This document shows positions 109 through 42,900 of a stretch of 64,000 nt of DNA, piece after piece. Under the pieces are notes generated by a model. It had not been told where the DNA came from. It was given only the letters and a program-made list of their open reading frames with translations, and searched no databases. This DNA is from a virus, in IMG/VR virus record IMGVR_UViG_3300023109_000014, positions 18,462 through 82,461 of that record. One strand, given 5' to 3'. The position numbers and the translations under genes were made by a program. The first letter of the stretch is position 1. Every line of letters starts with the position of its first letter.

Positions 109-150
109 AAACAAAAGCTAGAATTTTAATATTTAAATATTATCATAGGT

Positions 151-13792: not shown

Positions 13793-13803
13793 TTTTTTTT
13801 AAA

Positions 13804-13837
13804 AAAAAAGTTCTCATTTTAGTTTTGCCTATGTAAT
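13804..13837 (+). promoter_or_regulatory. Bipartite putative late promoter AAAAAAGTTCTCAT-N13-ATGTAAT upstream of the tail tube gene
   Basis: Intergenic; matches 8183-8216 in both boxes and spacing. Confidence 0.7.
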
Positions 13838-13877
13838 ATAGGGTAACCCCTAATCTTACAATCAAAATTTAATAATT

Positions 13878-15218: not shown

Positions 15219-16070
15219 ATGAGAGGGCATAAACACGATACTCAAAATTTATATATCAATCGAGAAAGAATACGAGGGGTTCAATCATGTGCAGTAGGAT
15301 GGTCCGCCGAAGAAACATATGTTAATGCCATCGGAAGAGATGCGGGTTTTTTAGGAGGTGTAGTTGAACAACCCTTAACATCTACGTGTGATATCGAAAG
15401 ATTCATGGTTTCTCCAACAGATCCTATTATTGATTTATTTAATAGCGTGGAAATTTATGGAGAAACAAAATATACAAATGGACAAAATTATATTTTTTCA
15501 AGAGCTCAAATAACAAATTATTCATGCGAATGCGCTGTTGGATCTATACCTACGCTAAATTTCTCCTTGTTGTGTTATGGAAATTCTGGAGGAGATACAG
15601 ATATATTTCTTAATCAATCCCCAGAACGTGATCCTACCATTATGATCGCTAGCCCAGGAAGCGTGTCTTTAAATGTTAAAGGTCATTCCTCTAATAGAAT
15701 TCAATCTTTTAATTTTCAAATTAATGTTGACAGAGATCCAATTTTTAAATTAGGCTCACTAGAGCCTTTAGATTTTCGGGTAGAATTTCCGATACAAGTG
15801 GATTGTCAGTTTGTTCTACATGTAGATGATTATGAATCTAAAAATTTATTTGATTTTATTTGTTCCCCCGAGATTCAAGATTTAACACTTGGTTTTAAAG
15901 ATTGTGAGTCAGGAGAAAATATTAGAAGTTTTTTCATGAAAGATGCTAAATTAATGGATTACAATCAGTCTGGTTCGATTCATGAATTTTTAGAGGCCAC
16001 ATTCTCTTATAAGTCATACATTACAAACATTCAAGACTTAAGAAAAATATTAAATGGTCTTTCTTATTGA
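15219..16070 (+). CDS. Tail-tube paralog (minor tail protein)
   Basis: IQSFNFQINVDRDPIFKLGSLEP aligns with tube IQSFTLDVPMSRTALNRIGSVFP; YSCECAVGSIPT aligns with YSLEAAVGDIAT; GTGTA-N9-ATG at 15205. Confidence 0.65.
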   Translation: MRGHKHDTQNLYINRERIRGVQSCAVGWSAEETYVNAIGRDAGFLGGVVEQPLTSTCDIERFMVSPTDPIIDLFNSVEIYGETKYTNGQNYIFSRAQITNYSCECAVGSIPTLNFSLLCYGNSGGDTDIFLNQSPERDPTIMIASPGSVSLNVKGHSSNRIQSFNFQINVDRDPIFKLGSLEPLDFRVEFPIQVDCQFVLHVDDYESKNLFDFICSPEIQDLTLGFKDCESGENIRSFFMKDAKLMDYNQSGSIHEFLEATFSYKSYITNIQDLRKILNGLSY

Positions 16071-18916: not shown

Positions 18917-21900
18917 ATGGCGCAAGAAAATATTAGAGTAAGAGTTAAGGCGATTGGGTTAGATCAAGACATCGCCAACCAAGCAAAAATAGGCGAAAAG
19001 AAAATAAAACCTATTAAGCTTTCTTTGAATGAAAAAGGGCTTGTGCAACCTCTCGGTAGAATTACTGGGCAAATGGGAGAATTCGAGAAATCGATGGATG
19101 CTGCGGTTGCTCGTGTATTCGCTTTTGGAGCTGCTGTTTCTGTTATAAATGGAGTATCTAGCGCATTAAAAGCTATGGCGCAATCTGCAATGGAAGTTCA
19201 AAAAGCTTTGAAGGATATCAATGTTATTATGAATATGTCAGAATCTGCTTTGCAAAATTTTGGCGGAGCTTTATTTGATGTTGCTAGAGATACTGCTTCA
19301 TCATTTGATGATATTTCTGCAGCAGCAACTGAATTTGCCAGACAAGGCTTAAGCGCTGACGAAACACTGCAGAGAATTGCTGACGCTATGACCTTAACGA
19401 GATTGTCTGGCATGGACTCTGTAGAAGCTGTAAATGCTTTAACCGCTGCAATTAATGGTTTTAATGACGCAGCAATCAATTCCTCTGATATTGTGAATAG
19501 GCTAGCTAATGTTGATGCCGCATTCGCTGTATCTTCAAAAGATTTAGCTGATGGATTGGCGCGAGCAGGGGCAACTGCCCAAGCTGCAAAAGTAGAATTT
19601 AACGAGCTGCTTGCTGCAGTTACAAGCGTTCAACAGCAAACCGCTAGAGGTGGCGCAGTGATTGGAAACTCTTTTAAAAGTATATTTACTAGGCTTCAGA
19701 GATCGAGCGTAAAAGAAGCTATGGAGGCTATAGGTGTCGCGACCCAGGATGCTTCTGGTTCATTTAGGTCTGGAATGGCAATCTTGCAAGATTATGCTAG
19801 AGGTTATGATAATTTATCTGACTCGCAAAAAGCTGCCACTGACGAATTAGTTGCTGGGGTTTTTCAGGTTAATAATTTAAAAGCTTTGATTAAAGATTTA
19901 AATAGTGAGTTTAGTATATACGATCAAGCTTTAAAAACTGCAAACAGTAGTACAAACGAAGCCACTCAAAGAAATCAAGAATTGAACAAGACTATGTCGG
20001 CTTTGATGACTCAAACTGGTCTATCTATTAAAGAGCTTGCTGCAGGCCTTGGAGAAATGACCCTTGGGCCTGGGATCGAGAAAGTTCTCGAAACAGTAAA
20101 ATCTTTATCTGACGGTTTAAATAACTTAATAGGTGAAGATACTGGCTCAAGCATAGGTAAAACTCTTTTAAAAGGCATTGGTAGTTTTATTAGTGGTCCT
20201 GGGATGGTTTTAATTGGGGGTGCGTTTATTAAATTATTTGCGTTTGTCGCACAACAAGGTTCGAGTGCACTAAAATCAATCTTTTCCATCAATAGCGAAA
20301 CTAAAAGACAAGAAGGTTTGCAGGCAGCAATTCTGCAAATATTAATGAATGAAGAAAGTATTCGACAGAAAATCCTGGGTGGCGCCGCAAGTCAAGCGGC
20401 GAAAGAGCAAACGATTTTAAGCGTTTTAAAAAAGCAAACCATGGAAAGGCAGGCGCAAGATGCGCTTTTAAAAAAAATCGCTGCGTCGTCTACATTAGCA
20501 AATGTCGCAATAAGTAATCAAGGAACCATTGTTCCGCATGGTAGGGGTTCTAGAGCTGCCGCAGGCAGAAAAGATCTTGGAATGTCTAAGGGTTATGTTC
20601 CTCCAGCCACTAAAGATTCTAAATTTATTCCATCTTTCGAGGCTGAACAAAAAGATATAGAGAGAAGGGTTGGAGGCGCAACTAAATCAGCTTCTCCAGT
20701 TTTAATAAAAGGTTTTCAAAAAACTAAAACGCAAAAACAAGATGTCGTCGCTAATACGGACGAGGTTGTTGTTGAAAATTATATGGGTTCGGGCGCTTCC
20801 GCCATTTTAAACAAAAACATGGCTCAAAGGTTTAGTTTTGATAATGGGGTAGAGAAATATTACTCTGCTGCAGAATATGGTTCAAAAAATTTCTATTCGT
20901 CTGGCTATGTTCCTAATTTCAAAGCAACAAATAAGCAGGTAATTAAATTAAATGCAGCTGGACAAGGAATTATAACTGCAGAAGCTGGAAAGTCAGAAGT
21001 TGGTAAAAATCATACAGTTACTGCTTCTTCAGTTTTTGATGGCCCAGTTCCTCCAGCATTTAAAGGTTCAAAATTTGAAGCAAGAAATTTTACAGTTGGA
21101 AGATTAGAACAATCTAAAGGAGGCTTTCATAGTATTGTAGATAAGCATATGACTACTGCATTAAGAGACGTTGCCCAAGATGTTGTTCCAGGTGGAAAGG
21201 TTAAAGGTTCTGGACCCCTGAGTGATTATTTAGATAAATCTGCAGGACCTCAATTTACTGGAAGAATTTTTGAGGCAACCTTAAATTATATTAAAAATTC
21301 AGTAGTTAAAAATGATCCTGGAACAGCTGGCTGGGATTTTCCTGGAGGACAGTTTCAAAAAAATCTAACTACTGCATTTAATCTTGATTCAAGAAAAGGA
21401 AAAAATGTCGATGCAAAAGTGTCATCCAGCAAAAAAAACATAGGAAGCGGCATTAAGAAAATTATTGACTCTAGGGGTGGTTATAAAAATTTAAAGCAGT
21501 ACAAAGATTTTGAAAAACAAAATAAAACTAAAAAAGCTTCTGCAGTTGGAAAACCAAGAGCTTCAAAAGGAATGATTCCATCAAATACCGCAAGTGTTCC
21601 GAATTTTGTATCCACTTGGGGTAAACCAGAATTGCTTAAAAAGATTAGAGAAAAGAATTTATCAAGAGCTCAAAAAGATATTAAAGGTTTTGACGGCATG
21701 AAGGCAACTAATGAATGGAGCGGTCAATTACCTATTATACAAGTCGCCGATAAAAAAACTGGAACAACAACTAGATTTACTTATGGTAAGGGAGAGTATG
21801 ATAACGAAAATAAGACTGACATTTTATATTCAGAAAGAGCTAAAGGGGTAGACGTAAACGATCCTTCTATGAAAGGTGGAGCTAATAGAAATTTTGATAA

Positions 21901-24900
21901 AATCGCAGAGTTTACAGGAAAAAGAAGTTGGAAAAATAAAGAGATTCATAGCACCTTTGACCAAATTCGAGCTTCTTCAGGCAAGACTCCTTGGGAAACC
22001 ATAATCAATTCATTCCCGCAATTAAAACAAAGAGTTAAGCCAGGAATGTCAACCTCGGGAACTTTTCAAATTGGTACTGATGAAATCGAATATAGAAATA
22101 TTAAATCTTTAAAAACTAAAGTTAATAAATGGGTTAAAGAAAATGGTATAGAGTCATTTAATAATTGGTCAGAAGCAAATTTAGGCTTTAATACAAAAAA
22201 CTCAATTTTAAGCGGAACTGCATCTGGCGAATATTTTGCTATGGATGCATATACAAAAATATTAAAAAAAGGAGACAAGCATTTTAATCGAGATGAAAAA
22301 GCTGGCTTTTATTCTCAGGGAACTGTCCCTAATTTTATTATTGATAAGAATACTGAAAGATCTATATTGCTTAAACAATGGCAGGGAAAACTTGATCAAG
22401 CCAGAACTCTCGCTAAATCAGGAAAACCCAGAGCTCAAACAGACCCTCAAATTAGCCAACTGAATGGCGAAGCAAATGGAATATGGAGCCAGATTGTTAA
22501 AATGCAATCCCCTCAAAAGCCAAAAACCAAAAACGAAAAAAGCCACTCTGAAGGTTTGATCCCTAACTTCTCTAGTTATTTAGATGCTGGCAGCAATGTT
22601 GATAAAAGTTTTGGAGGAGGGATTGTTCCTAATTTTGTCAAGGTTGGCGAAACAAATCTAGAGAGAGACCGCCTTTTAAAGCAATGGCAAGGCAAACTTG
22701 CACAAGCAAAAACCTTATCTCAATCGGGTAAACCCAGAGCTCAAATAGATCCTCAAATTAGCCAGCTTAACGCAGAGGCAAATGGGGTATGGAGCCAAAT
22801 CCAAAGTTTAAAAACTTCAAAAAAAGAAAAAACAGGAAAATTAGGAAAAGGTTCTACGCTTAGAAGATCTGAGGGTCTTGTTCCCGCTTTGGCAAAAGGT
22901 GGAATACCAAACTTTAGCGAAGATAAGATGCGTGAAGAAACGTTAAGTAGGACAATATCGAAAATGTCTGAAGGTTTAGTTCCCAACTTTGCTCTCAAAA
23001 GAAATGCTGGACTAAGAAAGTTTTACGATTTTGACGAAACTTTAGGAACGTATTCTAAAAACGTTAAATCTAAGGATTTATTTCAAGCGGAGTCAGCAGG
23101 GCTTGCGAAACCAACCCCTCTCGCAAAAGAACTTGAGGGGCAAGCCGTAACTATTTTAACCGCAAGAGCAAAGCAGTCAACTCCATTTATTGAAGAAAAA
23201 TTAAAGAAGTGGGGTATTAATCCTGAAAAGATTATGACTACTGCGGATATGTTTAATAATCTTAAAATTGCTAATGACGGGTCTGGAAAAATTATTAAGG
23301 CTCAAGGAGGAAGAATCTCTGGTTATAGAAATTTAAAACCTGCCGAGAAAAAAGCTATTCTTCTTGAAAGAATATGGAAAAAACAAGGAGGTCAATACGA
23401 TTTAATTGATGATGCGATTGAAAACATCGAAGCAATTAAAAACTTAAGGAATGAAAATATAACTGGCACTCATTATCAATTTAGTGGTCAGCATTCTGGA
23501 AGAGGTAGTGGGAATGCCGAAGGTTTAGTTCCCAACTTTGTTCAATCAGAAAATACTCAAAAAGATCTTGTCCCCAATTTTGCTGCAAAAAGCATGCCTG
23601 TTCCTGGTTATTTAGAAAAAGTTTCCAGAGAAATTCAGTCTGCAGGGGGTAGTGCTCAAATTGTTGGTGGGGCTCCTAGAGATTTTTTAATGGGAAAATT
23701 TCCTAAAGATTGGGATGTAGAGGTTTTTGGTTTAGAACAAGAAAAGTTGCAAAAAATATTGTCTCCATCTTTAACTAAAGAAGGTTTAGTTGGTAAAGAT
23801 TTTGGAGTATTCAAAGCTAAAAGTGGAGGTCAAGATTTTGAGTTCTCGATGCCAAGAAGAGAAAAGAAAGTGGGTGTTGGGCATAGAGGTTTTGAGGTTG
23901 AAGTAGATCCTAACATGGGGCGTAAAGAAGCTGCACAAAGAAGAGATTTAACAATCAATTCTATTTCTTACGACCCCCTTACAAAGAAATTTATTGACCC
24001 CTTGGGGGGGAGGAAGGATTTACAAGACGGCATCATGAAGCCTACGTCTCCCAGATTTAAAGAAGACCCTTTGAGAGTGTTAAGATCTATGCAGATGGCT
24101 GGAAGGTTTAATCTTTCTGCAGATAAAGAATTGGTCAACTATTCTCGAGAAATGACTGGACAATTTAAAGACCTTCCGAAAGAAAGAGTGAGAGAAGAAT
24201 GGATGAAATGGGCATCTAAATCTACCAATCCAGAAAAAGGTTTACAATTTTTAAAAGAGTCTGGGTGGATAAAACATTTTCCTGAAATTGATCAATTGCA
24301 GGGAGTTCCCCAGTCTCCCAAGCATCACCCTGAAGGAGATGTGTTTAATCACACAAAGCTTGTGACGAATGCAATGGCGAATAATAAAAACTGGCAAATG
24401 CTTCCAGAGAAAGAGAGGGGTAAATTAATGTTTTCTGCTTTGACTCATGATTTTGGAAAAGTTACAAATACACAAATAAGTAAAGATGGCGCTATAACTT
24501 CTTATGGGCACGAGAAAGCTGGAGTAGCACCAATGAAAAGTTTCTTGGGTAGGATTATGTCTCAAGGAGAAGCGAGTAAATTATCTAAAGACTTAACGCC
24601 TTTTGTTGAAAGACATATGTTTCACTCAAATTTTCCTCAGAATTTGACGCAGAAATCTATTAATAGGTTGACTAAGGACGTAGGGGACCTAAGCAAGTTT
24701 CAAATATTGCTTGAATCTGACATGGGTAAAAATTTATCGGATGATGTAACTGCCAGAAAATTTACTCAGGTTGACGAAAAAAATATTAATAAGATGAGTT
24801 CAATCGCAAAAGAAAGTGGAATATATAAAGAGCCGCCTAAGCCGATTGTACAAGGTAGGGATTTGATGCAAGAAAAATTAATAGAACCTGGCCCTCAAAT

Positions 24901-27900
24901 GGGTTCTGTATTAAAACATCTAGAAGAAGCTCAAATAAGTGGAGAGTTTAAAACTAAAAAAGGGGGAATTGAATATTTTAAAAATAACAAAGAAGATATA
25001 TTAAAACGTATTAATAAATTTACCCCAAAAGGTAGAATGTTGAGAGGGAGAGCTAGCGGAGAAGTTCCAGAAAAAATAAATTATTCTCAAGGCTTGGTGC
25101 CTAATTTTGCTAGAATACCTTCTATGTTTAACGTTAAGCAAACTAAAACTGGCAAGGATTACGTAATGCAAAAAGATTTGGAACTTGCTAAGACGCAGTT
25201 TCCTGACGCAACTTTTAAACAATGGGGCAAGAATCCAAAGATGCATTTCATTTCTGGACATAAACCTCAAAATAAAATAACGAAGGACAAGGTATCCTTC
25301 GCGTCTAACGTAGACTTGCAGGAGTTCGGTAGCTTTGCCGCCCAAAAAGGATATCCAGAAGTAATGGGAGCGATTGTTAAGTCAACTCAAGTTAAACAGA
25401 ATTCTTCAGGTAATAGAAATTATGATCGATTGACATCTTGGAAAAACAAAAAAGAAGAAGTTCCTAATCAAATAAATATTAAAGATGCCCAATCTCTCTC
25501 TACTGAAGACTACAAATCTTTTCCAATGGGTAAAGCTGGAGCAGATTTAAAAAGATTATATAATCCTGACAGTTTTGATAATGTATCTAATACAATTTTT
25601 ACTTCTTCAGCACCTCAAAAAGCTCTTGCAAAATCCGCAGAGAAATTCACTACAAATAAGATAGAAAATTCTGAGGATATATTAAATTTTGTTAAGAAAT
25701 CTCGTGGGTCAGAATCAATTTCAACCGAACAAATAAATAAATTATATCAAGAGTTTGCTGAAATGAAAGGTCTTGCAGTTATGTCTGATGGACATGTGCC
25801 TAATTTTGCTTCTCCTGCTTTTAATAAATTCATAAAAGATAATATACATAATAAAAATTATAAAAATATTTCTGATAAAGTAACTAAATTGAATCTATCT
25901 GTTGGCAATGCGTATGGAGTTGGTGGTGATATTCCTCAAGATGTTAAAATTTTAAATCGTTTAACTTCTCAATTATCTAAAGTAACAAACCCGCTCATGG
26001 GTCCAACAGGCAAAGGTTCAAGGGATAGAGTATACGAATCAAAAGAATTTGCGCAGAAATTTAACAAAACTGAGTATGACAAAATCTCAAAAGAAATTAC
26101 AACATTGCAAAAAGAAAAGTTTCAATTAAGTCGCCCATCAAATCCAGACAAAAATCCAGACAGAGTTAAAAAAATTGAGTCTCAAATTTTAAAGAAAAAA
26201 GAGCAGGCAACTAATACGCAATTTTATAAAGCTAAATCTGAAGCGGTGAAGAAAGAAGATCAAGGAATAGAAAGGTTGTTTCAAGAAAAATTTACCGTCC
26301 AAAAAGATCAAATTGTTTCGCCTACAGGTAAAACTGTATCAACTAAAGATTTAAATTCTATTGAAGAAGAGTTTAATGAATATATGTTTGCCAAGCAACA
26401 AAAAAGAACTAATACAAACGAAGAATTAGTCTTGCCCAATTTTTCTGTTACTGCCCCAGAAACAGTCCCAAACTTTGTCAACGTAAAAGCAATGAGAGAG
26501 CTTGCAAAAAGAGGTGCAACTGAAGGAGAGAGAGCTGCCGCTCAAAACATGTTAGCAAAGCATGGGTTTAAGAGTAAAACAATCACATCTAGAAGTTGGC
26601 ACGATAAAATATTTTTAGAAAATTATATTAAAAATAACGGTCCTAAGTCTGACCTTGAGATGTTAATTAAGAAAGGTTATGCTGAGAAAGAATTAGTTTC
26701 CCTAAAAAAACAATATCAAAATGACCCTCAATCTGTTAAAATTGCAAATCACGGTATTGTTCCAAGCTTCTCAAAACAAAAAGACCGAATAAGTGAAGCG
26801 GATTACGAAACCCAATTGTATAAAGAAAACTTTAAAGACTCATCTCAAAAACAAAACGTCAACAATTTTAGCTTTGTCGATGACAGAACAACCTCTTCTT
26901 CAGGCTCTCAAAGTTTTGCAGAGGGTATGGTTTCTAAAGACGTAAGCTCTAGCAGTTCTTCTGTAGACTCCAAAAGTTTTGCAAGTGGAACTGTTTCCAA
27001 TATTTCTTCGCAAGAAACTGAAACTTTAGCAACTGGGTTTATTCCAAACTTTGGTATTCAATCTGACCGAATCAAGGAAGCGAGTCAAGCCTCTCAACTT
27101 TACGGACAAAATGTTGGGTATAAAGATACTCAAGTTAAAAAATTAGAAATTAACGGAAAGAAAGAGAGAGTTGTAGTAAACAATAAAGAAAAATTTTACT
27201 CTACTGGTTCAGAAGTTCAAAAAGCTTTTAGCCTCCCTTTTAAACCTAATGGAGGAATGGTTTTGCCTCCAAAAAATACTAAAGTCGGAAAAGAAAGAAG
27301 TAGAGAGTTTAGTAGTTTGGTTAATTCTTTTTCTAGCGGCGTAACTCCTACTGCCGATTCTTCTCCTCCTACTTTGGCTTATGGAGCTATGCCAAATTTC
27401 GCGGTATTCAGAAAATATTCTCCAAACACCTTAAGGAAATCCAAGATTAAGGATTATTCTAACGAAGAGTTTTCTTCGATAAGTAGAGCTTTATCGGAAT
27501 TTAACCTTATGTCTATGGGGTCTAGAGGAGGTTTGATGGGTCAAAAATTAAAGTCTGAGTCTCGAGCAGAAGGTTTATTTAAGACTAAGACGCAAGAGCA
27601 AAAAGATGATTTTAGACAATTTTTTAATTCAAGAGAGTTTAGAAGCTTAACAAAGAATGTTCAGGAAAAACTTAAAGTTGATTTTCCCGATTTATCCAGG
27701 GGTTACGGTTATAACGTTGACCCTTTTGCTGTGAGGCAACTCGAGAATGTAAGCGCTGGAACAGTTCCAAATTATGCAAATTTAAGTTTATATAGAGGGC
27801 AAAAAAAATCAACTATAGATAAACCCAGCGTTGGTAAAAATATGCCAAGCTTTGGCGGCGCACAAACTCCTCGAGACATTATTAATATAATTCAAAATTT

Positions 27901-30900
27901 TGTTAAGTCTCACGTCAGCGGCCCTCTCTCTGGAAGAAGAGATATTGGAGAGTTAGATAATGTTGCTCCGTCTGGCGCTACCTCATTTAGCACTTCAGAA
28001 ACTGTCGCTAAGAAATTTGCTGGAGGAGGTTTAAATAAGCCTGCAAAAGATAATATACTTTCCACTCAGGTTCCAGAAAAAAATGTATTTAATAAAAAGA
28101 AAATTCTTAAATTATTAAATCGAGGAGCTAATCCAAAAAAAGGCCAATACCCAGAAGTAGAAAAATTTAAAAAAGCGATGGCTTCTGGACAAATTCAAAA
28201 ATGGGCAGAGCAAGCTGGGGGACTTTTCTTGAATGTTTCTGGCAGAAGAAATGATAAGTCTCTTCAGAAATTTAATAAAACGGAATACGGTCGAAAAGAG
28301 TATGATTTTTATGATAGACCTATGAGTTCAATTGTGCCTGAGTCTGATATTGGTTGGAATCCTAGTGGAACTAAACAAATCAGTCCCCACGAGAATGAGG
28401 TTATGCAAATTTTTGACGAAGGAATTGTACCTAATTTTTCTGGAGCAGCTGGTTCTGCAGGCAGGCAAAAAAATAAAGCCTATCAGGACGACCCCGACAA
28501 TATTATAGATTTAAGGCCGTTTACTACATTTGATTATTCTTTATTATTTCCCCAAAGAGGTGCTGGAAAATCTAAAGATGAAACATTAAGAGGGAGTGGG
28601 CCATATGCAAAAAAATATCAAAGTCAATTTCTTGTTGGTTGGAATGCAAAAGGAATAAATCCAAAAATCCCTAAAGAAGCTGATAAGATCGCAAAAATAG
28701 GAGACGCTGTAGAAAGAGATGTTAAAACTATAGTTAAAGCTCATTCTGAAAATTTCGTTAGAGCTTTTGGCGAAGAAAAGATTAGAATACAGGATTCGTC
28801 TGCAATTGATGGAGTTGTTCAAAAACATTTTAACGAAGGAACTTTAACGGCGATGGCTGGGAACGCTTTTGAGGCCGCTGCAAATACAGCTTTTAGCAAC
28901 GTACCTGTAAACGCGGGAGGAGGAGATTTTGATGTTAGAGGCCCAACCGATCAGTTAAGGAGGTTTTTTAATTGGCCTTCTGCTCACGGATCCGTAGGAG
29001 ATTTTAAGGCCAACTCTCAGTCGGGAGATATTAAAGCTAGCATGGCGGACAAGATATTAAAGGAGCTTGATTATAGAGGTTTATTATCTGGACAAGTTGC
29101 AAAAGAAAAAGCTGACTTTGATCAGTATGATAAAGATAAGGCGGCAAAAAACAAAGCAGCTACCATCTCTCGATTTAAAAATGTTCCTGGGTCAAATTCT
29201 TTAAGAGGAGGGATTACCCAAAAAGCTCCAAAAGGTTCAGCACCTTCGGAATCAAACCAGCAACATTCTAAAATCGTCGGCTCTAGTCGATCGGGTCAGG
29301 AACAAGAGGATTTCTACTTTTCTCAAGATAAAAACTTATCTCTCGGTTGGGTTCCAAACTTTAAAATAAATCAAAATCTTGCGGGAGATTCTGTTCCAAG
29401 TTTTATTGATAAACCTAAGGAGCAGTTAAATAATTCGCTAAAAGTTAAAAGCGAAAAAGTTGACTTGCAAAAATCCCTTAAAGCAAAAAAAGGTACTTCT
29501 GTAGATTCTCAGAACGAGCTCAGAAGTCAAAATGTATCTAACGCTTCGGCGAAAAAGTTTGAGTCAATCATTAATAATCGATTTATTGATTCGCAGGAAA
29601 ACAAAAAGTTTTCTTCTAGCTCTTTCGCAGATTCCGCTCAGTCTAAAAGTTTACAATTTTCTCGATCATCCAGCAACCTTTCTTCAGATTTTCTTAATAC
29701 TCGATCTGAAAATAAAGTTTCGAAAGACGCTTCTGTGGATTCGCAAACTTACTCGCAGGGCATGGTGTCGAAAGACGCTTCTGTGGATTCGCAAACTTAC
29801 TCGCAGGGCATGGTGTCGAAAGATAACCAAGTGCCTTCTAAATCTTTAGAAGCCTCTAAATTTGATTTGACTACCATACATAGGCTGAGAGATAAATTTT
29901 TGTCAAGAGAGGAAGCTGTACAGAAAAATATTTCGCCTAGTGAGCGTAAGCTTGCGTTGCCTAAAGGTAAAAAGCAAGAAGGCAACTCTGAGTTAATCAA
30001 TTCAATTTATTCTCACGGCAAAGATTTCTCTGCGGATAGGTTATCTAATGGTTACATTCCTAACTTTGCAATTAATGCAAATAATTATTCAAAGACTAAT
30101 GATGCTTTAGGTTCCGCAATTAAAAGAGAAAATCAGGCGGGAATTCCAATGAATAAAATTAGAGTGGGTCAAAGCAATCGATTGAAAAATGAAAAAAATC
30201 CTGGAGGAGTTGGAGTGTTTAATACAATTGATGAACCAAGAGGTTTAAATCAAGGTATTAGTAGGTCTATATCTCAAGGAATCAATCCTCATAAACATGG
30301 CCTTGTTTCTTCTGGTTATGTCCCCCAACAAACAATTAACGTTCCTAATTTTGTTGGAAGGTTTATTCCTAAAATGTTTAAAGGCGGAAGTAAGGGGGGT
30401 AAAGGTGTTGACGCTCCAATTCCAACTTCGGGTGGAGGTGGAGGCGGAATGTTAGGGGGTGGCGGAGGCTTAATGAATACTATATTTATGGGGCAAATGA
30501 TGTTTGGAGGCATAGAAGGTAAAACTGGTACTGCAGGAGGATATGCGGCAGATGCTACTGGAGACGCTTTGCAGATTGCAGGAATAACATCAATGATCAC
30601 AGATAAAAAGAAGTGGGTTGCTTTAGCTGCAACAGTTGGAGCTTTGAATGGAATGCTTGACCAATATTCAAAAAGCTTAAAAATGCAGGGAGAGCAAATC
30701 CAGAAGAATATTCAAATTAATGGAAAAGCTATTGAGAGCGCAACTCAAGTTGTTTCTGCCCAAACAAGACTTAATTCTGCAATAGAATCTGGCAACACAG
30801 ACAATATATCTAAAGCTATTGAATCCCTCCAAAAAGAAATAGAAAGGTTTCCAACAAATGGAAGCGACGCTATAATTAAACTTCGCAGCGACCTTGTTGG

Positions 30901-33900
30901 CGCTGGTGGAGATGTAGAGATTATGTCGAAAGCTTTAGAATCATTTTCTCAATCTGCTCTTAAGGTTTCTAAATTAGGAGAACTAACAGTTAAAACTCAA
31001 GCTGTTAACGAAAATAGAGAAGGTTTAATTTTTGGAATGGGGCCTTCTCAACTGCCTGAATGGATGGGTGGAGCTAAAGGAGATTTAAAAGAAGAGGGTT
31101 CAAATGAAATTAGGCAAATAGGTAGAGAATCTGTGACTAACTTAGCGCTTGCAGAAGATCAGGTTTCAGCATTTTCTTCTAAAATTTCAAAAATTGATTT
31201 TACAAAAATGTCTCCCGATGATATTAAGTCTACGATTAAAGAGTTTTCTAGAACTTTAGACGAAGAAACTAGAGTTTTGTTCGATCAGATTGTTGATAAT
31301 GTTCCTGATGATGCTGTTGTCGATTTTACCATGGGTATTGGCGAGCAATTAAAGCTAAGAAAATCTTCCATAGAGGCTGGCAAGGCTGTTGGAAAAACAT
31401 CTCAAGCTCTTGGTAATTTAAAAAGTACAATTGTAAATTTATCTACAGCTGTCAGCAGAAGTATATCAGAATTAAATTCTAATATTTCTAAAGCTTTTGA
31501 TATTGCTGAAAACCAATTAAATTCTGAATTGAGTATTATGACAGGGATGAATTATATTAGCCCTAAGGAAGCGAATGAAACTAAGGAACAGTTTGAGGTT
31601 ACAAGAATCGAAAGTGAAGCTGCTGCAGGCACTGAATTTGAGGTATCTAAATTCGTATCTCAATTAATTAAAGATACGAAACTTGACGATGTAGAGGGTA
31701 AGGATGCATCTATTTTTTCTGGAAAACTTGGAAATATTCTTTCAAAAATGGGAGAGCGAGCAAATCCATTGCAAGACGAAGATCCGAGGTTTATGGCAAA
31801 TGAAATAGTTTCTGCTATAAGTCAAATGGATCCAGCAGACCGAACTCAAGGCGAACAAGAATTATTAGATGCAGTCAAGCAGATTGGGGACAAGGCCGCT
31901 TCTCAAATTACTTTATTAAAACAGGCTAACGAATTGGCTTCTAGACAGCAAACAATGCAGAGCAGAATGAACCTGCAAAATGCTCAAATCGATATGGAGA
32001 GAGACGGCGATACGCTATCTCAATTTTCATGGTCTCAAGGCTTAGAACCTAGAACTCAGCTAGATAAAGATATGCAGACTCGCTCTAGTATGGATATGAT
32101 TGGTTTACTTGAGCCTTTATTTGGACCTAGTGAAGATCTGACTAAAATGAAGCAAGACGTAGGCGTTCAAAATGCAATTGGCAATGTACAAAGAATACTT
32201 CTTGGAATGGGTATTGAAAACGATGCTGGTTTTGATGCTGGCGCTAATGAAGATATTAGTATGCAAACAATGATTTCTGAAATGCAAAAAGTTTTAGCTC
32301 AAGGAGATTTAAATAAAGGGCAAGAAAAAATCGTAAACTACATGGTTGGCCAATTAAAAAAGCAGGAGGCCGCTATTTCTGCAACCCCGCAAAATACAGA
32401 AGATCTAAAGAGACAGACTGTTCAGTCTACATCTGATGTTCTCGGTGTTGATTTAAGCGAAGTTGGTATTGATTTAGAGTCTTTGGATTTTAGTTCCCTC
32501 AATGCTATTGCTGATCAACTCGCAGAAGATGGCGTTGAGATAAAATATTTATCAAGCATCGAAGAAAATACGAAAGTTATGGCTGCAAAATTAAATGATG
32601 CCCAAGGAATTACCAAGGAAGATATAATAAGCGCTATACAGAACATACAAATTAAAGATGCTGAAAAAGTAGAGAAAAGAAAGGAAGCTGTTAAGCAAAA
32701 AGAAGACACTCGTAGTAAAATACAAGATATTGCTATATCTGGCGCCGATGTGAAAGTTGAAGGGGGTGCAGATATAAATGTAGGCGGTAGCACTACTATT
32801 AACGCTAACCCTCAAAGTTCTCAACCTCCTCAACCGCAATTTAATCCATTTGTACCTAACTTTGCAAAAGATGAGTCCAGCAATAATAAACAATCTCCAA
32901 TGCGAGGTTTTGTGAAATCCCTTAAAAGAGATAACAATACTGAAAACAGGGGTTTTGAAAAGTTTGATGGAAAAACTTTTACTGGCGGTAAGGCATTGCA
33001 AGTGGCAAATTATTATCCTGGAGCTATCGACTCAATCTATAGAGAAGTTGACGTTTTGGAAAATAGAGGTGTGCAGAATGCTATTAGCAAAATACAGTTA
33101 ACTGTTCCATCTACATCTAACTCGACCACAAAATATCAAGGCCCAGTAGTTACAAATATGATGGACGAAGGAAGCGTTTCTGCCCAAAGCTATTTGAATA
33201 AAATTAACAACGTACATAATTTAAAACATTCTGATTCAAATTTTAGTATTGCTGGCGCAGTTCCTAATTTTGCATCCTCTTCTCAGTCTCGCGGTTCAGT
33301 TAATGCTTCTGTGAGAAATGTTAATGCTAAATCAATTGCAAATAATATTTCAAGAATAAATCAAAAAAGTGATTGGAAGATGGCAAGAGGGGAAGAGAGC
33401 GCTGGAAAAACTTATTCTTCTGGAGCTGCATTAAGGGTTGCGAATTATTACCCAGAAACAAAAGAAATGTTAGACCAGGAAATTTCAATTCTTAAAAGTA
33501 GGGGTATAGATAGCCCATTAAGCCAAGTTCAGTTAACTGTTCCAGACGAAAACACTACAACTTTTCAAAATAAGAATACATTAGATCCTACAATATCGAA
33601 TCGATTTGATGATGGTTCTGTATCAATATCAAATTATACAAAAAAAATTAGGAACGCTCACAAGGTAGGGTTGCTGACTCCCCAGAAACCAGCAAGCGTC
33701 GGAGAGCATGCTCGTGAAAGGGCAAAAAATTTAGTTAATAACGAACAAGCTTTAAGGAATCAGCTGCACGAAAACATTCTTAAGAAAAGAAAATCCGTTG
33801 TTCTCTCCGAGGAGTTAAAATCCAGAAATGAAAGTATAGATGAGCCTGAGGCAAAAAAAATAAATATTACTGAGAAAGAGGGTTTGAAGTATGAAGGAGG

Positions 33901-36900
33901 AACATTTTCTGCGGGAGCTGCTTTGAGGGTTGCAAAATATTATCCTGGAGCAACAGAATCTATATTTAGGGAAATTCGATCTTTGGAAGAAAAAGGCGTT
34001 TCAAGCCCTCTTGATCAAGTCCAGCTTACTATTCCAGAAAAAGGTTCGAAAGAATTTTCTTCTTATAACGGACCAGTGGTTACGAACAAAATTGATGAAG
34101 GAGGAGTAAGTTCTAAAAATTATCTTAATAAAATTAGAAGCGTTCATAAGGTAACTCCTAATGAAGGGCAATTTGCTTCTGTAGGAATGCCTAATATTGA
34201 TGCGAAAAGTCAATATACTAGAGGGGCAATAAATAGCTTTTCTCAATTCGATTATGTTCCTAATTTTAGCAAAACAGAGGGTCGAGCAAAGGGAATTATT
34301 CGTTCTGCTAGAGAGCTAAGTATTGCTATGGAAAAAATGAATGAGCTTCCTGAAAATATTACCCCTTCTCAAATTGCGGAATTTAATCAAAAGGGGTCTG
34401 CCGTATTAGAAAATATTAATAGCTTAGGCAACCCAAACCAGCAAACTCTCACAAAAACACAAAAAGCTCTTGTTTCAAAAATGCAGGATCCAGAAGTTGT
34501 TAAAACTTTTCAGTCCATTGGGATAGATAACTTTAATTCTGATCTTGCTCAATTTGTTAACCCTGACAGTCTTGGAGAACCTCCTCAACCAGCTAGATTT
34601 AACCCTTTAGTTATTCAAAGTGCCGAAACAGGGCGGGCGGTTGAAAGCGGCACAAAGGTACTTCCGAGAGATATTAAGAGCGGTAAGTTTAACGTTGCGC
34701 AAGTTATGCTTAATGATGAAAATTTAGATGAATTTATTGAACCTTCAGAATCTAAAAATATTCAAGCAGTCGTTCAGTCTTCTCAAGACAGCGGGCAAAA
34801 GTTTAACGAAAATAAGAAAAAGTTACAAGAAAAGCGGCCAAATTATGCTAGTGGTAAGGGTACTCGCTATACTGATGAACCTACCGCTCCAAAAGCTGGA
34901 ACACTAACTACCGCAAAGAAAGAAGGTTTTGTTGGTATAGAGTCTCACGGCCCTTCAAAAGCGCTCGCAACCCAAGTGAGAAACGAGGAAAACGCTTTAA
35001 AGAACACTACAAAAGAATTAGTTAAGGATGGTGAAGGAGGATTCATGAGAAATGCTTCCTCTTGGATTCGCAAAAAATTACAAACTATAAGGTTTCTTGA
35101 TGGCAGCTCCAACGAGCAGAAACAAGGGATGTCTATAGAAAAAGAAAATGCTGTATTAAAGCAAATAGAAGATGATGGAATTGTTCGATACCCATCAGAT
35201 GATAGCGCTTCCCCTTTAGAGAAATCGCCAGAATTTAAACAACAAATTTCTGAAGTTTTAGACAATCAAGATTTGTCTTCTCAGGAAAGGGGTACGTCCC
35301 AAATTGAACAGCAAACAGAAACTTGGAGAAAAAGAGAGCACTCTCTTACAGAAAAAATTCAGAGAGCTACAAAAGCAAGACAACTCAAAAGACAAAGAAG
35401 CAGGGCTCAAGAGCTAGGTTCTGCCGAACGACAAAGAAAAACAAATTTAGATGCCAAAAATAAAAGACAAGAAGCTAAAGAAAGAGAGAAGCGGAAGGTT
35501 CGAGAAATCCAAGAAAGGCAAATTGATGAAGGTTTAGGTCGACAGAAAATTGGCACCAATTCAGAAACTGGAAAAAGTATTTATCATTACGATAACCCTC
35601 AACTTAGAGAATTAAGCTCTTGGGATAAGTTGAAGCATCACATGCTAAAATTTGTTGGGTTAGACGAGGGTTCGTATTACGAAGAGGTTGAACGTCAAAA
35701 TAAGATCGTAAGAAACAAACAAATGCAGGATATTGCTACTGGCGGAATTAATACTCAGCAATCTAAGTCTATGTCAACTCTTGAGAAGCTTAAATTAATG
35801 TCTGAACGCGATGTTCTAATTGAGTCTAGCGAGTTTGCAAAAGAAACAGACGGACAAAAAATATTAAGAGGAACTCCAGGCGAGCGAAGAAAATCTTCTT
35901 TGTTTGACATTCAACAAAAAGCAGGGGTCGGCGGAAAGCCTGCGGTTATTAATCTTGCGGGAGATATTTCTAGCCAAACGAATATCGCTGGCAGTTCATC
36001 TAAGTCTAGTAGTTTGACTCAATTATCTCAATCTAGAGCTGCCGAAGCTCAGCCCACGTTAATGGATAAGATAAGGAACGTTAAAAAACAACTGTCTGAA
36101 AAATTTGGAAAAGTAACATTAAGTCCAACAAGCTCGGCCTCTGTTCTGCAAGAGTATGATATTCTTGATTCTAGTGGAAGGGTCGTAGCTAAAATGGGTT
36201 CCAATGGTGAGGTGCTACCTTTTGAAGTTGATAATTCACCTGTTATATATAACGCTCAGGGTCAAAAAATAGGAGCGGATAAAGTAATTCAAGTTCAGGA
36301 GAAACAGTTTGCGTTGCAAAGCTCTCCCATGAATGATGGCCAGTTATCTACAAGCGTTAATCAATCTGACGTGTTAGAACAAAAAGCTTTATTTGATATT
36401 GGTGAAAAAATTAAAAGCGGAGCGCCTATTTCTTCAGCGGAAACTAATTTAGTTCAAAATTGGGCAAATAAAAATTCAGAACTTGTCGGCTCGATTAATG
36501 CAGACGATGTAGATAACGCTCTTTTGTTAGAAAATAACGTTGTCGATAATAAGCAAATTAGAATTGGTAGGATGGGCGAGGAACTTTCAAATTTAACATC
36601 TGTTACGAATGCAGCAAATGCAGAAGCTCAGGTAGAGTCTTTAATTAAAGACCCTCAGTTCGTTGATAGCGCAACTAGGACAATGCCTGGAGATAACTTG
36701 CATTTGCAAAGAGTTTTTGATTCTATAGATGATAAAAATAGGAAAACGAAAAGTACCCCAATCAAAACAGAGACTGCGTTGGATAGGGTTAAGAGCAATG
36801 CTAATATAAATCAAAGAGCAAATGCTTTAAGCAAAGAAATGGTATCTAGAGATATAAGAAAAAATTCATCCCTAGAACTTCAGAAAAGATTAAGACTAAA

Positions 36901-39900
36901 CAAAGGTTTTGATACAACCGAATTAAATACAAAGTTTTCCAACGAAAAATCCAGGCTTGAGGAGTTATTGAAAAATCCAAGTATTCCTTCTGATAAGAAA
37001 GTTGGCCTAAACGAAGATTTAAAAATATTGACAAGAAATCGGAATGAGCATTTAAATACTCTTAGACCTGGTTTTATGGAGAGAAAGGAAATATTAATAA
37101 ACGAACAGTTTAAAAATATTATGAGAGACACTGGTTTAATGTCGTTGACTGGAGGTGGCGCAGACGGAGTTTCTTCTAACGATCCAGTTAATCAGTTTAT
37201 GAAAGATAAGCTTGGGCCGAAAGTTTGGAACATGGATGGAAATTTTGTTAAAACTAAACAGCATTTGGCCAGCGCAATTTTTGGCGAAGAGCATAAATTT
37301 AATAAAGAGTTGACTGAGTCATTAGTTGATAGGCAGTTAAGATCGACAATATTAAATACAAAAAGTGAAACTTTTGGGTTGAGTGATCATATGCGTTCTA
37401 ACCTTATAGACATGGATAAATTTGTAGGTATGGGTTTAGGCGATGAATTTTTGAACAGTGCAAAAAAACAAGGATTACATCAATCAGATATAGGCGTTTC
37501 TAAAATGGTGGACTTTATGGATCTTATGGATCCTGCTGGCAATAAAATTGACGGAGAGGGTAAACAAAAATTAAAAAAACAAGGCATTCAAAAGATATTT
37601 CAAAAAATCCAGAACGGAGAATTATTTTCTCAAACTGCGATTAGAGGAAGAACAGTTCCTATAATACCTAAAGATGCAGAAACTGTCTTAAAGAACCTTT
37701 CTGGAGAAAGTACATCCGCACAAATAAACGCTGCGAGATTAATTGAAAATGAACAGAAGATATCTTCTTTAGCTGCAGAAAAAGGAAGTGGCGTAATTAG
37801 CCAGTCAAATTTAAAAATCGCTGCAAGTGAATTAGAGGCGGGAGATATTAACGAAAATGGTATAGACTTTGACAAAGTTAGGATGAGCTCTGAAGAAATT
37901 TCAAACGTTCAATCTATGATGGATTCTATTGACGCAGACCCCGATCAAAAAACAGATCAAAGAGTTTCTCAATTGTCTGAAGCTCTTGATCCACAATCAA
38001 GCAACGAATCTGTGCGAAGTTTATCTCAATTAAAATCTCTTGAATTAGAGGCTGACAGAGCTGCAGAAAAAGCAGAATTTAAAAAGTTATTAAGTTTGGG
38101 TAGCGGGGCTACTCCTGAAGATGTAGGTAGAATGTCTGACCTGCTTCAGTTACATGACCAAAAAATAGAATTAGGTAGATCTTCTAATTTTGATTTAGAA
38201 GACGTAAATCAAGCGAGAACAACTATTAAAAATACCGCCAAGGAAAAAGTTGCAACAGCTAGCTCCACTATTGGTAAAGAACTTTCTCAAAAGAGTGAGC
38301 CTGGACAAGCACAAAAAAGAGCTATAGAGGAATTAGAAAAAATTGATCAAGCTGATCCTGTTGAGCAGGCTGAAGCTATACGTTCAACAAATCAAGAGGC
38401 AGAGGCAAAGGTTCGGTCAGCGAGTTTGGATCAGGGAGAAGATATAGTTCAACAAACAGTTGATCAGGTCGAAGATGTTGATGAAACATGGAAGGAAACT
38501 AAGGAGTCTCACATGTCTGATCCAGATAGAGCTGCTTCTGCTGGAAGACTGGAAGAATTGGGTGAAAAGTATCGAGCAATAATCCAATCCGCTACAGATA
38601 GTAAAGCATGGAGAACGACAAGGTCATTAACTAAAAATGTTCTAGGTGCTGGAATGGGACTTGTTCATCTTCCAGGAAAAGCTAAAGATTTAACAACTGA
38701 AGCTTATGGAAGCGTTAAGGAAAGAATTGATGCATTTAAAAAGGCTCAGGCAGAGAAATTTAATAAAAGAAAAGCAGAACAAATAAAGCATCCAGACGGA
38801 AAATCTTCAGGAAATTTTGAACAGCAAGAGAAAAGCAGAGTAATTGACGCTAAACTAGCTCAGCTGCCAAACACGAAAACAAGCAGAGGGGATTCAAGCT
38901 TGGACGATAGCCTTCAGAAAACAAAAAGATTTCATATTGATGGAGAAAATATGACACCCTTTGAGCAAGATCTTCATGATAGAATGACTGGCAAAGTTAG
39001 AGTCAAGGATTCTGCAGGCAAAACAGTAGAAACTTTTTACGATAAAAAAATTGCATCAGTGATTACAAACTCAGATGTTGGTAGAATTTCCAGGGTTGAG
39101 GATTCTATTACTGGTAGCTCTTATACTAATCGAGGTTTAAAGTTGAGAAATCTTCTTCCTGGAACTGCAAGTAGAAACATTGAGGGTCGATCTTTTATTC
39201 CTCCAGCTTTGCAGGAGATCGCATCGCTAGGTGGTCTTGATGGTCAAGGTAGCAAATTAAAGCTTGATAAAGAAGGCCTTGCTCAAAGAGCTAAAAATAT
39301 TGGCTCAGAAATATTTACTGGAAAACTTAGCTCTCCCGTTCAGAGCCTTTTTTCTACTAAAGAATTTCAGACTCAACTTGCGGAAACTAAATCTAGCGGA
39401 GCTCATGTAGCAATTCCTGAAGAATTTTCAAAAACCGTAAAATACGGAAAAAAGGGAGAAGCTAGTGTTTTAGATATAGATGGTGCTGCAGATGAACTTA
39501 TAAAAGAAACAAGATTGATTGATCATGTTGGAGATGATGGCAAGCTAACTAGTTTTTCTTCAGATGAATTTCAAGCTTTCAGGGAATCAGAATTTCAAAA
39601 AATAGAACAAAGATTTGCGGGCGTTGATAATCCTGCAGATCCAGTTCAGAACGAACAAAGAATAACTCAAATTAACGAACAAAAAGAAATGTTCGATAAT
39701 AAAATTCTTGCCAATAATGCAGTTGATGAATCTGGCCAAGTTGTTGGTAGAAACACATTAACCTCAGAAGCCGCTCGAAAAAGAATTGCAAACATCCAAA
39801 AAATGTCGGTATCTGATGGTATGATTAGAAAGCAAAAGGCTATTAGTGATGCAGCCAATTTTGGTGGAGGGTCTGCCCGAGGAATGACTGTATCGAGCTT

Positions 39901-42900
39901 GATTAATATAGGAGCAATTGGTTTGGCTCAAACCGAAACTGGAATGTCTACTATTGATTCTCTCGCAGGGTCGTTTGATTTTAGCAGAAAAGATAAATTT
40001 GGCGTAAGGCTAGCTGGCGGCGAACTTGCGACTTCTTCTGGGGTAAGTGTTAAAAGTCAGCAACACTTACTTAACGAAGAAAAAATGAGTCAATTAAAAT
40101 CTATGGCCGAGAGCAAGCGAGATGGAGATCGAGCTGCTACGGAAAAATATAGAACACAAGGCAAAGACTTTTTAGAATCTACTGGCCTTGCAGAAGCTGG
40201 TTCCGCTAAACCAATTCTTTTTGACACAAAAGAAGAGGCAGAACAATGGTCTAAGACTATGACAGACAAACATGGTACTCAATTCGCTGGCACTCAAAAT
40301 TTATCAGCCTCCAAAGACGGACAGAAAATATTGAGAGAAATGGGGGTAAGTTTTTCTCAAGAAGAATTAATTGCTGGTCAGTCGGGCGCAACTGTAGTTG
40401 GCGCTACAGGAGGTTTACTTGCTGAAAGTGGCGCAATGGCTCTAAAGGCTAGAATAGGAATTAATGGAACAAGAATGACTACGGGAGCAGCTTTACGAAT
40501 AGGCGCTACACAGGCTTTCTTGCCTGGTTTAGCTATTGAGGCTGGTATTGCTACAGGAGAACATTTTAGAGATAGTCATTCTGGCCACCTGTTTAGTGTT
40601 GCGGGAATTGATGTCGATGAGGGCGAAGCTTTAGGTCTAGCTGGTTATATGGCAGGAGGCGCTGTTGCAGGAACTTTCTTGGGGGGCCCTATGGGTGCTG
40701 TGGTCGGTGGCCTTGCTGGAGCAGGGGCGTATGGGGCAAGAGTCGCAATTGGTGAGCATGTAAATTTTGACCCAGATGAAATAAATTCTGGAACGTTTAG
40801 AATGAGTCCCGATGAGCTTAAGGCTAGACAACAAGAAATTATAGAACTTGCAAGAAGTAAATCCAACGAAATTAGGAAAATTATGGATACTGCTGCAATG
40901 TCTAATTATACCTCTCGCAATAAAAAAATTAAAAGCGATTTTGTTTCAGAGGAGGGGTTTGAGACGTTTTATGAGAGATCTGAAATGCAAAAACAACAAA
41001 GACTATTGACTGAAAAAGCTTCAATAATAAGAGAGAGTTTTTTACTCGCAGAGAAAATGGACGCAAAAATATTAGCGAACAGAGAATTAAAGCAGAAAGG
41101 GGAGGTTAATGATAATTGGTTTGCTGAAGACGATCCAGTATTTAAGCAGAATTATACTGCTGACGCTATTTCTAAAATTTTAAGTGATACAACCTCTCTT
41201 TATGACCCTAATATGTTTACAGATATTAAGACTATGAGAAAGATGGCTAAAGAAGGAAAAACTCAAAATGAAATTCATGCAGAGATGCAGTCTGCAGATT
41301 TTAAGTTTGAAAGAATAAATCCAGACACTGGACAGATGGAAACTATTATGCCTAACACAGAAGAAGCTTTAGCGCAGAGAGGTATTAAGTCTCAGAAGTA
41401 TTTAAGTGGCTTAGGTAGAATAAATGACTTCAATGCCAAACAAGGCTTAATGAGATCTAGTACTGATTTTGCCTCTGCAAGTTCTGTAGAGGAAGCTATA
41501 GAAATTGGTTCTATGTCTCAAGGCCAGTTTGAGGAAGAAAAGCTTCGCTGGAATCCCAAGTCTGAAGGAAAATTTGCAAAGCTAAAAGACAGAAGACATA
41601 AATTATTTTATTCAGAAGGTAAAAAAATTACCAATCATGATCAGTGGTTAGAAGCTATTCAAAGAGGGCAATTGGATTACGGTCGAATTAACTATCCGAT
41701 GGAAATGGCTCAAGTAATGGGAGTACCTACAATGGAGGGGGAGAGAGTCGTGAAGAATGCTGATATCACTTCTGATGTCAAAAATGCATTTAATTATTTT
41801 CAAGATAAGGGTACTTTGTATAGAAAACCTATTCAGGCTACAGATAGAATTATAGAATCTATGGGAATGAAGAGTAAGGGTTCAGATGATCAGGGAGAGT
41901 CTAAAATTGATGAATGGATGTTAGGAAAGCAAGATGATGGATGGAATGTTCAGTATCATCCTGAATCAAAATCTGTTATGATGCAGCACGAAAAGCACGG
42001 CCTCATTTCTTTTCCAAGAGGAGCTGATCCTAGTGATCCTAGAAGTCTTGAAAGCTTGTATGAGAAATATATGTTTGATATTACAAAGAGTAAGTATGAG
42101 GATGGAATTATTCATAATAATAAGAGTGGGTATGACCCTGCTAATACTGCTGGAATGTCAGATTCTGACCCGCTTAGGGATATTAACTCTTCTGATCAAG
42201 TGGGTTTTTCAAAAAGTAAATTTAAAACATTTGAAGAATTTGATAAAACTATTCCCGAAGAACAGAGAGTTATGCTTTCTGCGATGTCCGCTTTGTTTAA
42301 AAGAGGCGAAGGCTTAAATGATGTTCGAAAAAATAGAGTAAGTACTGGCAATAAAGTTGACGAGTACGCTCAAGCTTTTGAGGATTTGAAAAATGATCAC
42401 AGTATGTATGGAGAATTCCAGAAAGCAATCACAGAAAGAAATATTGGAATAAACACTTCTAAAACAATGATTGGGCAAGCTGGTTTTGATATGCAAAAAG
42501 GTTTGGGTAATACAAGTCAGTTGGAAAATATTAATTCAGAACTTGGTATTAAAGATAAAGCTTATAATTTTAACCTTGGAAACTTAAGCGAAGAAGATCT
42601 TCAATCTTATACAAGTAGGTTTAGCGGAGCTATTGCAAAAAAACAACAAGATTATCAAGTAGTAAAAGAAAAGGTTTCAAGCAGGCAGGCAGAAATATCT
42701 CTCATAAATAAAAAAATAAATAGCGGAGTTAATCAAGACGAGAAAAATAAACTTATAACAAAAAGAACAAAAATTGAAGAAGCTCTAAAACAAACAAAAA
42801 TTAAAAAAGGCAACTTAGAATCTTTTATTACTGCTCCAGAAAAAATTAAACAAGCTAACCAATTAAAGAGAGGTTCTCAATTTAAGTTTCAAGAGAGTAT

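Follow-up and report, generated by a model that had tools for sequence, protein, structure and literature searches.

Enzymes that repair RNA during phage infection, such as T4 Pnkp with its ligase and the stand-alone CCA-adding enzymes, are to our knowledge known only as proteins made after infection. Tape measure proteins of mycobacteriophages and of T5-type phages carry peptidoglycan hydrolase motifs, and the catalytic domain is ejected together with the protein. Stand-alone tRNA nucleotidyltransferases are listed as an RNA-repair component of jumbo phages in the available part of Iyer et al. 2021 (PMC7824862), and the available part of Iyer et al. 2017 (PMC5512222) predicts MuF fusions as delivery vehicles within the polyvalent proteins, in which many effector domains share one virion-linked polypeptide that is expected to travel into the cell along with the DNA. 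Here we describe a 64,000-nucleotide stretch (the window; positions 18,462 to 82,461) of the 82,461-base IMG/VR virus record IMGVR_UViG_3300023109_000014 (CheckV completeness 60%), in which one giant open reading frame (ORF) combines a tape measure core with a HAD-superfamily phosphatase module and a CCA-adding enzyme equipped with an HD domain. The two enzymes and their embedding in the tape measure ORF are real and unusual, and the architecture suggests that the phage may bring tRNA-repair enzymes into the cell together with its DNA.

The locus extends two known themes, the polyvalent injected proteins and the phage CCA enzymes. Its CCA module has the domain order of the E. coli Cca-type enzyme (head, neck/body, HD, C-terminal tRNA binding) and the same GGxxRD, DxD, RRD, EDxxR and H...HD motifs; unlike that free protein, it occupies residues 1556-2058 of a 10,437-residue tail protein, and its activity is predicted. 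It belongs to the same family as the stand-alone phage tRNA nucleotidyltransferases of phrog_2244 (E 2e-68 over profile positions 7-384 of 392), homologues of which occur in 463 GenBank phage records; those, however, are separate genes expressed after infection (the two best GenBank matches inspected have 449 and 639 residues), whereas here the enzyme is part of a virion structural ORF. With the hydrolase-bearing tape measure proteins the locus shares a catalytic domain riding inside the tape measure; the known cases act on the cell wall, whereas the window's ORF holds many modules and its embedded enzymes have predicted cytoplasmic RNA or phosphate substrates. From its tape measure core, HAD and CCA/HD domains in a single polypeptide, the giant ORF is judged to fit the polyvalent-protein architecture, yet the carrier is a tape measure rather than a MuF or portal protein, and the modules are punctuated by a six-residue motif. 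The main text of PMC5512222 contains neither 'tape measure' nor 'CCA', and its supplementary architecture lists could hold cases. Our search of the published literature turned up no tape measure protein described as containing a CCA enzyme, and the initial annotation of this DNA had known of none.

By its core domain and its gene position, the giant ORF is best understood as a phage tape measure protein. In tblastn its N-terminus is 26-30% identical to proteins annotated as tape measures in large phages of Bacillus and Lactococcus, a T4-type large terminase gene lies upstream, and it is preceded by a tail-tube-like gene (ORF 15219-16070) with a weak Phage_tube_2 match of 24.2 against a cut-off of 27. 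Both module stretches proposed from the letters alone lie in frame 0 of this ORF, and the original observation is confirmed; the giant tape measure ORFs of relatives are likewise open, over 7,181-7,702 residues. The source is an uncultured marine long-tailed phage. Among the matches listed, 20 runs (marine or seawater) that belong to 13 studies contain the stretch, and one of these is possibly the source of this DNA; the window has no DNA-level similarity to GenBank phages. The HAD-CCA arrangement is not an assembly chimera, because a relative of about 80% amino acid identity keeps the module order and because contigs of two runs from two other studies, X2 (23271-23991) and X3 (23431-23776), bridge the junction with 0 differences.

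The CCA module is predicted to be a complete CCA-adding enzyme of the housekeeping type. PF01743 scores 69-72 bits on it against a cut-off of 23, PF12627 is likewise above its cut-off, and every catalytic motif named in the initial annotation was located: GGxxRD at residue 1584, DxD at 1598-1600, RRD at 1675, EDxxRxxR (EDPLRVLR) at 1716 and the HD-domain motifs further on. The EDxxR motif selects the nucleotide in class II CCA enzymes. Stand-alone homologues of 441-535 residues, many named CCA-adding enzyme at source, share 38-45% identity with the module over 87-98% of its length. In PDB it matches class II enzymes that add CCA, CC or A as well as poly(A) polymerase, the top alignment taking in the HD region, and the best NCBIfam model is that of the multifunctional CCA addition/repair protein (NF008137, 178.1 bits, positions 5-331 of 409). 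Because the module has the MPVP N-terminus of P0099, a stand-alone protein, and extends as far as the boundary motif that follows, it is a whole enzyme dropped into the tail protein and not a fragment. The initial annotation had the reading frame right (23582-25050 corresponds to residues 1556-2045) and the end too early, the module reaching 25090 (residue 2058). The catalytic motifs are kept in six of six embedded copies, with EDxxR in all those aligned and the HD motifs in five of the six. Coordinates are collected in Table 1.

Table 1. Tape measure core, embedded enzyme modules and their boundaries in window coordinates
Feature	Position	Residues	Strand	Evidence or remark
Giant tape measure ORF carrying the modules	18917..50230	10,437 in total	+	One terminal stop, no internal stop
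Tape measure core domain PF10145 (PhageMin_Tail)	19283..19837	123-307	+	E 2.2e-28, 99.9 bits vs cut-off 33.2
Direct repeat of 25 nt encoding boundary motif, left copy	22970..22994		+	24/25 identical, 22 nt exact
Boundary motif GLVPNF upstream of HAD module	22973..22990	1353-1358	+	Pattern search
HAD-superfamily phosphatase module (predicted)	22991..23521	1359-1535	+	Motifs; invariant residues in 12 sequences; PHROG matches
Direct repeat of 25 nt, right copy	23519..23543		+	Holds GLVPNF, residues 1536-1541, nt 23522-23539
Boundary motif DLVPNF directly upstream of CCA module	23564..23581	1550-1555	+	Pattern search
Full-length class II CCA-adding enzyme with HD domain (predicted)	23582..25090	1556-2058	+	Profile and homologue matches
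Nucleotidyltransferase head domain PF01743	23660..24037	1582-1707	+	With GGxxRD, DxD, RRD
HD phosphohydrolase region	24323..24631		+	HHPEGD at residue 1803, HD at 1844; aligns to HD region of PDB 3wfo
C-terminal tRNA nucleotidyltransferase domain 2, PF13735	24839..24970	1975-2018	+	28.8-30.6 bits vs cut-off 27
Boundary motif GLVPNF closing CCA module	25091..25108	2059-2064	+	Pattern search

Modules are delimited by a short boundary motif of the generic form G-h-[VI]-P-N-F, searched strictly as G-[FLMIYVW]-[VI]-P-N-[FY]. Across the six frames of the 82-kb record the strict form occurs 10 times and a loosened form 14 times, all in the giant ORF and its frame, as compared with a roughly estimated chance expectation of ~0.003 strict motifs in a protein of this size. 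The HAD and CCA modules are set apart by a 14-residue spacer between two copies of the motif. Well beyond these two enzymes the motif marks the borders of many modules, in the window over 20903-30067 (residues 663-3717) and likewise in the relatives P0002-P0018 and L005-L089; it may be a cleavage site, or serve in docking or as a translocation signal, and no protease was identified. The modules that follow the CCA enzyme (25094-28423 and 28424-30067) are units of 90-550 residues without a family match, Pfam and PHROGs giving none at 27776-28426, and in the ORF upstream of the HAD module a 95-nt direct repeat (22400-22494 and 22706-22800; 79% identity) suggests a duplicated short module. Two modules of relatives (residues 910-1207 of the ORF of locus L013 and residues 1047-1311 of P0002) show by eye D...(D/E)xK-like patterns and could be nuclease-like.

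Comparison with relatives shows that these modules are shuffled. Three giant relatives (P0002, P0003 and P0004; 7,181-7,702 residues) have the tape measure core in common and carry 11-19 motifs each: P0002 has the CCA/HD module and no HAD; P0003 has the HAD module (70% identical) and no CCA, being collinear with the window apart from inserted modules that include the CCA enzyme; P0004 has the CCA module at another position. In IMG/VR a profile scan picked up over 111 loci with a related tape measure gene, and three further contigs were found binned into metagenome-assembled genomes (MAGs). The strict motif is carried by 77 of the 84 loci included in a census that reached at most 10 kb past the N-terminal match (~3,900 residues), L008 being left out since it lies on the same contig as L006. 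Two of the 84 (L006 and L013) carry a CCA module, two (L006 and L010) give a strong HAD match and two a weak one. L006, the relative of ~80% identity mentioned above, has HAD and CCA in the order of the window, and L005 and L007 have neither. Within the reach of the census, the typical related tape measure ORF has ~2,000-2,600 residues and 4 motifs.

The phylogeny of the CCA module indicates, as far as a quick maximum-likelihood tree can tell, a single capture of the enzyme from a stand-alone gene followed by shuffling, because the six embedded modules form one clade (SH-aLRT 99) within a group of stand-alone enzymes. In this tree, 87 of 124 rows were kept and 37 dropped (match shorter than 380 of the 504 query positions, or span above 650 residues), stand-alone enzymes were sampled by taking one in three of the 120 best matches, and P0004 sat on a long branch. 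MuF-fused CCA enzymes were considered as nearest relatives of the embedded ones and rejected, scoring 291 bits against 330-397 for stand-alone proteins and occupying a separate clade.

Those MuF fusions bear on delivery in another way. CCA and HD domains have been captured independently by other virion-delivery scaffolds: in a search for longer proteins they turned up fused to Phage_Mu_F, each time with one more domain (2H phosphoesterase in P0031, inorganic pyrophosphatase in P0026, PBECR2 nuclease in P0024), and further fusion partners are ART-PolyVal (P0023) and SprT/ART domains (P0036), the MuF and ART fusions occupying separate clades of the tree. By analogy, the independent MuF fusions support the idea that CCA/HD travels with the virion; both delivery and a role in counter-defence are plausible and are strengthened by these fusions, which also make the arrangement in the tape measure something other than a one-off. 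CCA and HD are also fused to a cytidylyltransferase-like domain together with an AAA_33 kinase domain (P0062), and all these fusions look like members of a broader class of multi-domain enzymes that act on RNA ends and reside in mobile elements.

The explanation that we favour, and in which we place middling confidence, is that the ORF carries two independent tape measure cargo modules, with predicted delivery and with tRNA-end repair performed by CCA/HD. In this reading the CCA enzyme was captured once and came to lie between two boundary motifs. The tape measure protein would exit the tail before the DNA does, and the modules would enter the cell still joined to it or, once cut at the boundary motifs, on their own. 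Once inside, CCA/HD would strip terminal 2',3'-cyclic or monophosphates and rebuild damaged 3' CCA ends of tRNAs before phage genes are expressed. The HD domain of E. coli Cca reportedly has both phosphatase and cyclic phosphodiesterase activities. The HAD module would act as a separate phosphatase, not bound to the CCA module, and may dephosphorylate nucleic-acid 3' ends. We infer in this scheme the presence of the cargo zone in the virion, its entry into the cytoplasm and refolding there, the substrates, and the counter-defence role.

Several results weigh against one part or another of this scheme. On the CCA module, NF008137 stays well below its equivalog cut-off of 451 bits, no NCBIfam equivalog cut-off being reached, so the module is best placed as a relative and not an equivalog of that family; the scores of Pfam HD (16.2 bits) and TIGR00277 (17.4 bits) are below the respective cut-offs of 22 and 27.6; and the embedded copy of P0004 has lost the HD region. 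On the HAD module, no Pfam match reaches its curated cut-off in any of the 12 members analysed, single-sequence and profile searches against PDB sequences return nothing below E 0.1, and hhalign of the HAD alignment with T4 Pnkp aligns motifs I and II at a probability of only 1.6%. A HAD module is directly followed by CCA in just 2 of 14 informative HAD contexts (the window with its close relative L006, and P0015), and the nearest relatives of the window's CCA module, P0019 and P0020, have no HAD upstream. The CCA-bearing relative G005 possesses a tRNA-like gene without encoded CCA, as ordinary tRNA maturation would have it. Finally, the size of the protein is troublesome. Tape measure proteins follow a length rule of ~1.5 angstrom of tail per residue, by which 10,437 residues amount arithmetically to a tail of ~1.6 micrometres; because of this implied length, some of the chain may be cut away or be located outside the tail.

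The counts just given do not support the notion, advanced in the initial annotation, of a two-enzyme repair kit as stated: since HAD is followed by CCA in 2 of 14 contexts and 2 of 7 CCA lineages have HAD upstream, the pair is not obligate. HAD and CCA are, on the available comparisons, independent cargo modules whose pairing is recurrent. The end-healing activity of the HD domain itself may explain why the CCA module can do without the partner.

Membership in the HAD superfamily is accepted on motifs: D1371-x-D1373-x-T (FYDFDETL), T1415 (ILTAR), K1479/K1480 (AEKK) and D1498-D1499 (LIDDxxxN) are all present, in agreement with the DxD, T, K and DD set first noticed, and the stretch 22991-23518 proposed for it is in frame (residues 1359-1534). 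Support from family profiles is weak though consistent. In an alignment of 12 sequences with 34-73% identity to the window copy, D18, D20, T62, K125, K126 and D146 are invariant and D145 nearly so. The family is small, an exhaustive search among 1.84 billion representative proteins yielding 14 representatives, and every one of the 14 lies within a protein, or a fragment of one, that has the boundary motif or a variant form. A tblastn search against GenBank phages gave one irrelevant match (E 0.06).

A credible alternative for this module is that the phosphatase has nothing to do with RNA ends and is an effector acting on a small molecule (a nucleotide, a signalling nucleotide or a sugar phosphate) or on a protein, its position next to the CCA enzyme being an accident of shuffling. 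In 12 of the 14 informative contexts a different module follows it, and the 24/25-nt direct repeat that flanks it is expected of recent recombinational insertion. Among PHROGs it is best matched by phrog_1238, which bears the label phosphoheptose isomerase and is found with 8 of the 12 members (window copy E 1.5e-5), and the sub-threshold matches are to DUF2608 (4/12), PF12710 HAD (1/12), 5'-nucleotidase (1/12) and TIGR01509 (4/12). The likeness to T4 Pnkp (PseT), on which the assignment to RNA 3' ends had leaned, is weak. DxDxT-type motifs align with those of its 3'-phosphatase, and phrog_415, which the phosphatase half of T4 Pnkp (residues 154-298) matches at E 3e-24, is matched remotely by 7 of the 12 HAD members as well (best E 5.9e-6); the direct profile comparison, on the other hand, is not significant, and the kinase domain fused to the phosphatase in T4 is missing here. 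We do not claim specific homology to Pnkp from that comparison, and a Pnkp-like substrate may serve as a lead only. Against a mere accident of shuffling also speaks that the HAD-CCA block of P0015 is collinear with that of the window at 45% identity over 759 residues, and that a MuF-linked CCA enzyme is likewise preceded by a phosphoesterase (the 2H domain of P0031). In fragment P0017, a module with a Walker A P-loop (residues 61-142) follows the HAD, and L007 has a similar one at 13571-14098; the order resembles a split kinase-phosphatase. That idea was left unsupported, as the P-loop modules of P0017 and L007 have no PHROG or PDB match and no family match.

For the CCA module, the principal alternative is ordinary maturation of phage or host tRNAs that lack an encoded CCA, performed either in the producing cell by an unassembled pool of tape measure protein or after entry. 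We regard it as unlikely. Stand-alone CCA enzymes are common in phages, as the 463 GenBank records attest, and tRNA genes are present in complete but more distant relatives (21 in G007, 2 in G006). The tRNA-like gene of G005 (L091, G005:C1:6991-7115) has a ~55-nt insertion in the anticodon region, scores 49.6 bits with Rfam and is not called by ARAGORN. The initial annotation had suggested looking for phage tRNA genes without encoded CCA: none of any kind was found in the window's 82-kb record, itself only 60% complete, or in those of four close relatives, in records that are 20-60% complete. G006 and G007 are without a PF01743 enzyme, in G007 despite its 21 tRNAs, and 9 of the 13 tRNAs examined in G007 have CCA encoded. 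Maturation creates no evident need for placing the enzyme in a tail protein or for at least three independent fusions to virion-delivery scaffolds.

Less probable again is that the cargo zone is never delivered, the modules being removed by cleavage at the boundary motifs while the tail is assembled and acting, if at all, only late in the producing cell, or serving as ballast that sets tail length. The 10,437 residues, by arithmetic from the length rule, are far above the normal capacity of a tail lumen, and most related tape measure ORFs, as counted within the reach of each locus, are of the smaller size given above. Ballast is argued against by the catalytic residues of both modules, which are kept across copies only 35-60% identical, and the independent fusions of CCA/HD to MuF head proteins point to delivery.

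It is very improbable that the nucleotidyltransferase is offensive, tailing host RNAs (poly(A)-like or otherwise) to hasten their decay or block their use in host takeover, for although bacterial poly(A) polymerases are close kin of class II CCA enzymes (PcnB 98 bits; E. coli poly(A) polymerase structures E 8e-18) and polyvalent proteins often carry offensive enzymes according to the available part of PMC5512222, the score with CCA models is roughly double that with PcnB, the closest homologues over the full length go by the name of CCA-adding enzyme, and the tRNA-binding PF13735 and the HD repair domain are retained.

Taking the favoured scheme of delivered cargo further, the injection of a ready-made tRNA 3'-end repair enzyme might be a general phage strategy that evolved several times, a proposal that we put forward tentatively. 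CCA/HD would have been captured at least three times (motif-punctuated tape measure, MuF and ART-PolyVal), each time with a helper phosphoesterase or pyrophosphatase (HAD, 2H or InPase), and this reading as a whole we likewise hold to be doubtful at present. MenT toxins are described as altering tRNA acceptor ends, and the abortive-infection toxin AbiEii is placed in the same DUF1814 superfamily. Were the scheme true, pre-packaged RNA repair would have its first example, and it would mean that some hosts damage tRNA acceptor ends too early for phage-gene expression to help, which points to host attack on tRNA 3' ends as an immediate-early barrier. The tape measure protein bounded by G-h-[VI]-P-N-F would then be a modular cargo-delivery system for cytoplasmic enzymes, and the range of tape measure cargo would be widened from wall-degrading domains to such enzymes. 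The modules are small, self-contained and easily expressed, which makes their biochemistry approachable without the uncultured phage.

Lastly, some features of the record concern the host and gene expression. Three related MAG-binned contigs belong to three different phyla, and homologues of the CCA module include Verrucomicrobiota names; an assignment of the host was dropped, as these indications conflict. Three identical pieces of the stretch were found in the metatranscriptome run X20, which was not accepted as a sign of transcription. Starts of 24 ORFs in the window (for example at 5140, 9596, 18917 and 50232) have A/T-rich leaders without Shine-Dalgarno sequences, hinting at a host that does not rely on them. 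An internal translation start at the conserved Met of the CCA module was considered as a possibility, in a phage whose genes have no Shine-Dalgarno sequence upstream. Beside the terminase gene, ORF 2259-3224 has a C2H2-type zinc-finger match just under the Pfam cut-offs, which is unusual in a phage.

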